From Eledone cirrhosa (taxonomy: Eukaryota), in assembly GCA_964016885.1 (NCBI GenBank), contig OZ024751.1, positions 31,186,001 through 31,250,000 of the forward strand: a DNA stretch of 64,000 nt, written 5' to 3'. Made by a program: the position numbers and the translations under genes. This document shows, piece after piece, positions 55,852-56,574 of this stretch. Each line of letters starts with the position of its first letter. The first letter of the stretch is position 1. The notes beneath the pieces are model-generated. The model was given only the letters and a program-made list of their open reading frames with translations. It was not told the DNA's origin and made no database searches.

Positions 55852-56120
55852 AGTATTTCCATAGAAAGGGTAAAGGAAAGAAGAGTGCTCAACGTATAGT
55901 ACAGAGCTATTTAATTACATAATAAATAACAATATAATTATTCCATTACTGAAGGTTTCAAGAAACTAGATGATCCTTACAGAAACGTCCAGCCCGTTCA
56001 TCTAGTTTCTTGAAACTTTTGGTAATGGAATAATTATAGTGTTGTTTATTATGTAATTAAATATATACATATATATGTATAGAATTCACAAGAATCAAAG
56101 CTATGTTCAAAGCATTTATT

Positions 56121-56167
56121 CACTTACAATTGTTTCATCCAAACCTAGGCTTGGAATCTTCTGAGCA
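56121..56167 (-). ncRNA. Minimal hammerhead-like motif with palindromic stem III
   Basis: TGCT-CAGAAGA-T-TCCAAGC-ctag-GTTTGGA-T-GAAAC-AATT-GTA-AGTG. Confidence 0.62.
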
Positions 56168-56574
56168 TTTTTCAATGTTTGTACACATGATTGACCTCCT
56201 TTCCAACGCAAGAGACATACAGATACATATGTATATATTGATGTACAGTGGAGTGACATATATTATATAATATTATTTCCGTATAGCAATTCAAATTCAA
56301 AGTCAAAATTAATATCAAAATTAGGTTTGGATGAAACAATTGTAAGTGAATAAATGCTTTGAACATAGCTTTGATTCCTGTGAATTCTATATAACTTCTC
56401 TGTAGAACAACTGATGTTATTACATTGAGCTATTTATCTTACTGGTAATAAGGTGGTAATAAATTATTGATCTTCACTGTTTAGGGTTGAAAATATATAT
56501 AACTATAAAAGGTTTTAGTATATACATAACCATAAATAGTATCCTTAATATTACATATATATGTATGTATATAT

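Follow-up and report, generated by a model that had tools for sequence, protein, structure and literature searches.

Eledone cirrhosa carries abundant, recently active Penelope-like retroelements (PLEs) of the Hydra clade in which position 4 of the hammerhead core is fixed for a base other than U. Position 4 is C in one family (family A, 6,281 copies) and A in another (family B, 20,545 copies), which together gives more than 26,000 genomic copies with a non-U base. In family A this change is accompanied by a mismatched 10.1/11.1 pair, so that two weakening features occur together. Comparison of copies makes it fairly probable, in our judgement, that family A keeps its C4 hammerhead as a slow ribozyme, which as a dimer is predicted to cleave after GUA. 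Cores that standard mutagenesis calls crippled are found here in recently active families whose ORFs are intact; in family A the rest of the fold appears to be under selection despite a core of this type. It is this family-level result at position 4 that is of interest. The locus at which the motif was flagged is itself an ordinary dead insertion, and the initial annotation's claim that its core is identical to that of a second family in the same DNA fails. Positions are given in the established hammerhead numbering.

The window, the whole 64,000-nt stretch of DNA analysed, holds a fold-back whose inverted arms (56078-56147 and 56322-56391) are 70 nt each, 99% complementary and separated by 174 nt. 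These arms had been described correctly, as had the hammerhead-like reading of the minus strand, which from 56168 to 56120 runs through a stem I arm, CAGAAGA, U, stem II, U, GAAA, C-AAUU-G, UA and the other stem I arm. Stem II has 7 bp and a CUAG loop. A relaxed full type I descriptor matched the whole window twice, and the match at 56120-56168 was the only one with an 8-bp stem II. The motif had been placed in the left arm, which holds for its 3' part; its 5' core strand, together with the 5' half of stem II (56149-56168), falls within the spacer and outside the arm. Likewise, the extent of 56079 to 56391 is right for the arms but not for the end of the element, which continues to about 56553. 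The features of the locus are as follows.

56078..56321, minus strand: inverted, 5'-truncated 3' end (pLTR) of a family A Hydra-clade PLE, 95.7% identical to locus L031, 8998-9226
56120..56168, minus strand: complete minimal type I hammerhead motif, from the sequence, a descriptor scan and folding
56157..56163, minus strand: 5' core strand CAGAAGA, with position 4 at 56162, A here and C in the family by copy counts
56137..56156, minus strand: 10.1/11.1 mismatch closing the 7-bp stem II with its CUAG loop, U.U here and variable family-wide
56126..56133, minus strand: palindrome ACAATTGT, predicted 8-bp dimer stem III, from an AATT to AGCT double change and cofolding
56124..56125, minus strand: predicted cleavage site after GUA, between 56125 and 56124, placed by hammerhead numbering
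56322..56391, plus strand: right arm, a direct copy truncated inside loop II, with the 3' half of the hammerhead only
56392..56553 (end approximate), plus strand: family tail, which is the element's 5' UTR in tandem copies, 95% identical to L031 and L007

The matching part of L031 (8998-9226) is 3' UTR downstream of a Hydra ORF, and the window element as a whole, inverted over 56321-56078 and direct over 56322 to about 56553, is 95-96% identical to the 3' end of that locus. The inverted copy terminates at a short 3' site adjoining (TA)n. The tail, of about 165 nt, ends at a long 3' site before (TA)n and, at 82% identity, matches L101, where the ORF follows it. Inverted copies with 5' truncation have been described for PLEs (PMC8557442), and these alignments identify the locus as a 5'-truncated and inverted insertion of a Hydra-clade PLE in (TA)n. 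The near-perfect arms might instead be taken for the 70-bp terminal inverted repeats of a MITE or fold-back DNA transposon that contains the motif by chance, a reading that is hardly credible given that arm lengths vary between copies, homology reaches 5' into an RT/GIY-YIG ORF and the right arm runs on into the element's tail. Because the right arm has only the 3' half of the hammerhead, the locus contains one complete motif. With no ORF, this single motif, a private A4 and a weak stem I, the window's own copy is probably inert. An Rfam search of 56060-56600 with E up to 10 returned five matches, none of them to a hammerhead family, and the best 150 of 211 matches for the whole window were repeat-driven and of miRNA or snoRNA type.

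The parent element could be found, as the initial annotation had expected of a PLE hammerhead: the genome contains RT/GIY-YIG ORFs of 830 residues. A 122-nt query is a dispersed repeat (best 40 of 997 candidates scored), with copies that have a common 3' end, variable 5' ends and, in several cases, inverted partners; the motif was present on both strands within 1.5 kb at 12 of 30 pattern loci. Among ten copies extended upstream, L031 carries YRDD and a GIY-YIG end in a frame of 498 residues that lies about 1.5 kb ahead of the motif. A protein search gave 150 scored matches at 89-100% identity, and ORFs of 830, 829 and 830 aa are open at L101-L103. At L101 and L103, CCGAAGA hammerheads stand on both sides of the ORF, and the L101 unit measures 4.7 kb between hammerheads.

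Family A is a Hydra-clade PLE, an assignment that rests on motifs of the kind by which Craig et al. define the clade (PMC8557442). A single ORF (L101, 830 aa) contains both the RT and, at its C terminus, a GIY-YIG endonuclease. It has an RWK motif with R for K (RWRTF), DKT (ADKTN) instead of DKG, YRDD, a CxCX5C linker (CNCRSSRTC), YIGST, and CxxC and CxH around conserved E and N (CNLC..E..N..CQH), and the elements insert into (TA)n with tandem and inverted pLTRs. A Neptune-clade label (DKG, a CX2-5CxxC linker and a CCHH endonuclease) was ruled out by the DKT and CxCX5C motifs. Pfam gave no match on the L031 ORF and a sub-threshold GIY-YIG match only on the ORF of another family; the top protein homologue, P0001, carries PF01541, and among the named homologues are proteins of Argonauta hians and Solemya velum (34-40%). 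Long asparagine-rich low-complexity inserts lie between the RT and the endonuclease (residues ~490-690 of the L101 ORF) in family A and similarly in family D, a third Hydra family; family B has none.

Published Hydra-clade elements, including Hydra-1_Obim of Octopus bimaculoides, share with family A the RW(K/R), DKT, CxCX5C and CxxC/CxH motifs, the C-terminal GIY-YIG, (TA)n targets, inverted 5'-truncated copies and a 3' hammerhead, often with U.U (PMC8557442). A length below 3 kb and a canonical hammerhead, which are tendencies of the clade and not diagnostics, are not seen here, where the unit is 4.7 kb and the core is CCGAAGA. More generally, family A exceeds 4 kb whereas published elements are mostly under 3 kb, its tail is ~165 nt compared with 30-40 nt, its 3' UTR of 1.4-2.1 kb is a further difference, and published rows have U4 where family A has C4 and a variable 10.1/11.1 mismatch (PMC8557442).

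A pattern for the window subfamily that left position 4 and 10.1 free had 539 matches genome-wide and none in a reversed control. Position 4 is C in 501 of these, T in 34, A in 3 and G in 1. The window copy is one of the three with A4, so its A is a rare copy-level substitution, and the subfamily core is CCGAAGA and not the CAGAAGA that had been thought common to both families. Across the whole family A, CCG stands in 99 of the first 100 of 6,281 matches. With respect to the canonical type I core (C3 U4 G5 A6 N7 G8 A9...G12 A13 A14 A15.1...U16.1 H17), 10 of 11 positions agree and position 4 does not. Older U4 relatives of family A exist as single copies at L046 (71-76% identity) and L043 (the motif only, with no blastn match). 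Since these are single copies, and since CCG can decay to CTG as a CpG (34 of 539), an ancestral U4 is unproven.

The 10.1/11.1 pair varies more widely, and the canonical G10.1-C11.1 pair does not hold in family A. The base after A9 in the window subfamily is C in 66, T in 17, A in 14 and G in 3 (the first 100 listed of 539 matches), so the U...U that had been made part of the shared variant is a minority state there and is not fixed in family A. In a motif-selected set of 100 copies (101 minus one truncated), which is biased towards the query subfamily, the combinations were A.G 32, C.U 28, C.A 16, U.U 13 and other 11. The youngest family A subfamily has A.G, and C.A, C.U, C.C or U.U occur elsewhere. 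As a separate observation, the foot of stem II seems to be an unexplained hotspot of mutation or RT error: 10.1 (window 56156) has four alleles in the subfamily, and the adjacent base (window 56155) differs from T in 12 of 43 copies across subfamilies in the ORF-selected set described below.

Conservation was measured on copies chosen by ORF similarity, which avoids selecting them by their cores. Of 55 such loci, the motif was found by its upstream flank in 48, with 7 lacking a flank match left out, and removal of 3 non-homologous rows gave 45 copies. No core position (0 of 11) differs between subfamily majorities, but 33 of 76 flank positions do, a result that holds at three clustering thresholds (Fisher p=0.0056, although subfamilies share ancestry and such p-values overstate independence). 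Diversity is 0.036 in the core compared with 0.194 in the flanks (p=0.011). With the 3 non-homologous rows kept (n=48) and raw allele counts, the difference between core and flank was not significant (p=0.10). The motif-selected set of 100 gave 0 of 11 core and 34 of 76 flank positions changed. C occupies position 4 in 43 of the 45 ORF-selected copies, and G5, A6, G8, A9, G12, A13, A14, A15.1, U16.1 and a non-G at 17 are fixed across the family A subfamilies, whose flanks differ by 12-40%; G8 is T in three separate copies.

Pairing is also largely preserved. Most stem changes are of the kind A-U to G.U, G-C to G.U or U-A to U.G, and the centre of the palindrome in 100 copies is AATT in 84, AGCT in 7, AGTT in 4 and otherwise in 5, with AGTT copies as intermediates. 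Stems I and II and the palindromic stem III with such variation agree with a type I hammerhead. Exceptions are the first stem II pair and the outer stem I pair. The first stem II pair is lost in 12 of the 43 ORF-selected copies with a letter at that place, and one subfamily majority shows A.A for it under two of three thresholds; two subfamilies leave the outer stem I pair unpaired. For the L101 and L165 motifs the cofold of lowest energy is a double hammerhead (-31.0 and -35.1 kcal/mol), while the window motif prefers a stem II duplex (-32.6 vs -20.6 kcal/mol for the double hammerhead). The suggestion that the self-complementary stem III acts as a dimer helix is supported, with ACAATTGT behaving accordingly in both the compensatory AGCT subfamily and the double-hammerhead cofold.

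An invariant core, changing flanks and a compensatory palindrome indicate that the hammerhead fold of family A is under selection. This evidence comes from family A only, family B being too homogeneous to show selection. An alternative is that the hammerhead died when U4 was lost and has since been a neutral passenger of successful elements. Naiad elements do proliferate without canonical hammerheads (PMC8557442), family B gives no selection signal and a minor group within it has a broken stem II, but the invariance of the family A core beside such divergent flanks and the double change in the palindrome leave a neutral relic improbable. The minor group consists of two family B copies (L048 and L069, 2 of 50 copies examined) that share flank marks and have a partly unpaired stem II; they may represent a small subfamily whose hammerhead was damaged and which nevertheless spread.

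What the selected fold does is a further question, and an attenuated dimeric ribozyme is its most likely predicted role. In this mechanism, the two hammerheads of a pLTR-ORF-pLTR transcript would pair through ACAATTGT and would cleave slowly, and binding of the element's protein may be required for this. The start of reverse transcription would lie downstream of the cut site, which implies that the template is uncut or has been rejoined there. As the copied template would span the cut site, a weakened core would cost little and may help. All 101 aligned copies extend past the predicted cut site, and 3' ends lie ~45 and ~210 nt beyond it. In a count of 124 copies, which required two bases past the cut site, the short site is the end of 60 and the end of the tail that of 53, while 6 continue into the ORF and 5 stop elsewhere. 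These two clusters of ends agree with the two internal starts of reverse transcription in an anole PLE (PMC11167929).

That every aligned copy extends past the cut site also suits a fold that is kept without cutting, as a dimerisation or protein-binding structure that places the reverse transcriptase near its start sites. This is a real but lesser possibility. The relaxed positions, 4, 10.1 and 11.1, are the ones that tune activity, and in the anole PLE catalytic mutants did not impair insertion (PMC11167929). A purely structural role explains less well why G5, A6, G8 and the other core bases listed above, down to U16.1 and the non-G at 17, are fixed, and the slow ribozyme remains our preferred reading. 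Data from other systems bear on both. The anole hammerhead cleaves only with protein, the main template is uncut RNA, and cleavage is dispensable for insertion in vitro (PMC11167929). In a viroid, a hammerhead with U4C suffices in vivo although its activity in vitro is weak, and there are natural cases of U10.1.U11.1 (PMC3088659). A phage screen gave no U4 escape mutants (PMC4075628). Against the slow ribozyme, single changes in the CUGA turn led to low activity in a deep mutational scan (PMC9901934).

The window also holds the family with which the motif had been compared, at the following positions.

14525..14579, plus strand: family B hammerhead with a CAGAAGA core, for which a 5-bp monomeric stem III is possible (20,545 matches)
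12582..13580, plus strand: family B Hydra-type RT/GIY-YIG ORF remnant, found by tblastn ~950 nt upstream of the 14.5-kb hammerhead
51700..51761 (approximate bounds), minus strand: second family B hammerhead copy, from window scans

The two families had been called unrelated, a description that does not survive, as both have Hydra-type ORFs; over 200 RT residues the family B remnant shares 45% identity with family A, and the linker in family B is CNCMNRADC. Family B has A4 in all of the first 100 of 20,545 matches, and a slightly narrower gap pattern gave 211 matches with a base other than A. Family D has G10.1-C11.1 and is mixed at position 4 (A 25, C 23, U 6, G 1; n=55). At L227-L256 (e.g., L235, L244 and L256) its position 4 base partly tracks an ACGT/ATGT change in loop III. 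In family G, the nearest relative of D, U4 is present in 3 of 4 G-like copies examined. Hydra families E and F have U4 in 93 of 100 among the matches listed of 5,101 and in 99 of 100 among those listed of 6,380, respectively. Families E and F, with canonical cores in the same genome, can serve as matched controls, which makes slow cleavage, protein rescue and a structure-only role separable.

A tree on the 140-residue endonuclease part left A versus B unresolved and did not reject an A+B clade (p-AU 0.09); an A+B+D clade, a grouping named after an earlier tree was seen, was rejected (p-AU 2e-7). These families suggest that U4 was probably lost more than once among Hydra elements. The recurrence that had been proposed therefore stands for the loss of U4 and not for a single replacement base, since different families have different bases. 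That the CAGAAGA-U...U-GAAA variant itself arose independently in unrelated families is very unlikely. Family B is fixed for CAGAAGA and a family D subfamily also has A4 (25 of 55), but the copy counts of the window subfamily contradict it, with A4 in 3 of 539 and U10.1 in a minority, U.U is a published Hydra trait, family D has G10.1-C11.1, and A and B are both Hydra elements. A bolder proposal can be put forward tentatively: Hydra retroelements might have repeatedly replaced U4 and freed 10.1/11.1, giving active hammerheads that are deliberately slow or protein-rescued, including a natural U4A at more than 20,000 copies, and this class might have been missed across animal genomes by CUGANGA searches.

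A one-mismatch descriptor applied to 40 unselected 9.9-kb stretches (396 kb) gave 24 matches: 14 canonical, 7 with A4 and 3 single others. Six of the A4 matches belong to family B and one is probably a chance match; shuffled controls gave 0 canonical and 0.7 A4. If these cores are active, hammerhead descriptors need N at position 4, as 7 of the 24 matches in this survey would indicate. Care must be taken with core-word searches, which yield false families. An apparent A4 hammerhead 'family C' (CAGACGAGGTATCACTATCGAAACC, 113 matches) turned out to be coding sequence of a LINE-type RT ORF (L197-L226). A loose non-U4 search gave 1,681 matches compared with 756 in the control and is taken as a lead only.

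Craig et al. list 26 Hydra hammerhead rows in File S2, of which 14 have U.U at 10.1/11.1 and all have U4 (PMC8557442). The U...U trait was thus already known; the mismatch is present in those published rows and a non-U position 4 is absent from them. The core string of their search was set to cuganga, which means that it probably did not cover other cores (PMC8557442). The minimal dimeric hammerheads that Cervera and De la Pena (2014, PMC4209133) describe from metazoan PLEs are likewise type I, with a 7-bp stem II, a 4-5 bp stem I, a small palindromic stem III and opposite-strand pairs 100-700 bp apart. They differ in a conserved G10.1-C11.1 and U4, and the core variant named there is U3-A8. 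Perreault et al. (2011, PMC3088659) record U4C and U10.1.U11.1 as active or sufficient, but as rare single cases with tertiary contacts and not as states fixed in families of thousands of copies; U4A is not mentioned in the available part of that text. In Poseidon of Anolis (Frangieh et al. 2024, PMC11167929), two RT starts downstream of the hammerhead also define a tail; this element belongs to another PLE clade and has a canonical core and a hammerhead that overlaps the ORF start. A search of mostly open-access literature gave no report of non-U4 PLE hammerheads, although the alignments of Lunse et al. 2017 and supplements could hold some, and a search for 'hammerhead + U4A + cleavage' returned no papers.

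The genome is dense in PLE hammerheads with many canonical families (L121-L160 and other loci), several of which have U3-A8 cores or U.U at 10.1/11.1, and at least 15 endonuclease clusters at 75% identity occur among the loci examined. Within the window, a second fold-back lies just upstream of the first (55908-56063; 66-nt arms, 92%), with related copies in L012 and L243. Both of its arms appear to hold the 3' half of a different PLE-type hammerhead (GAAAC...GTA). Minisatellites (~25, 66 and 48 nt) and an 87-nt perfect-junction inverted repeat are found nearby, at window positions 54000-55010, 55258-55455, 57184-57727 and 58115-58288.
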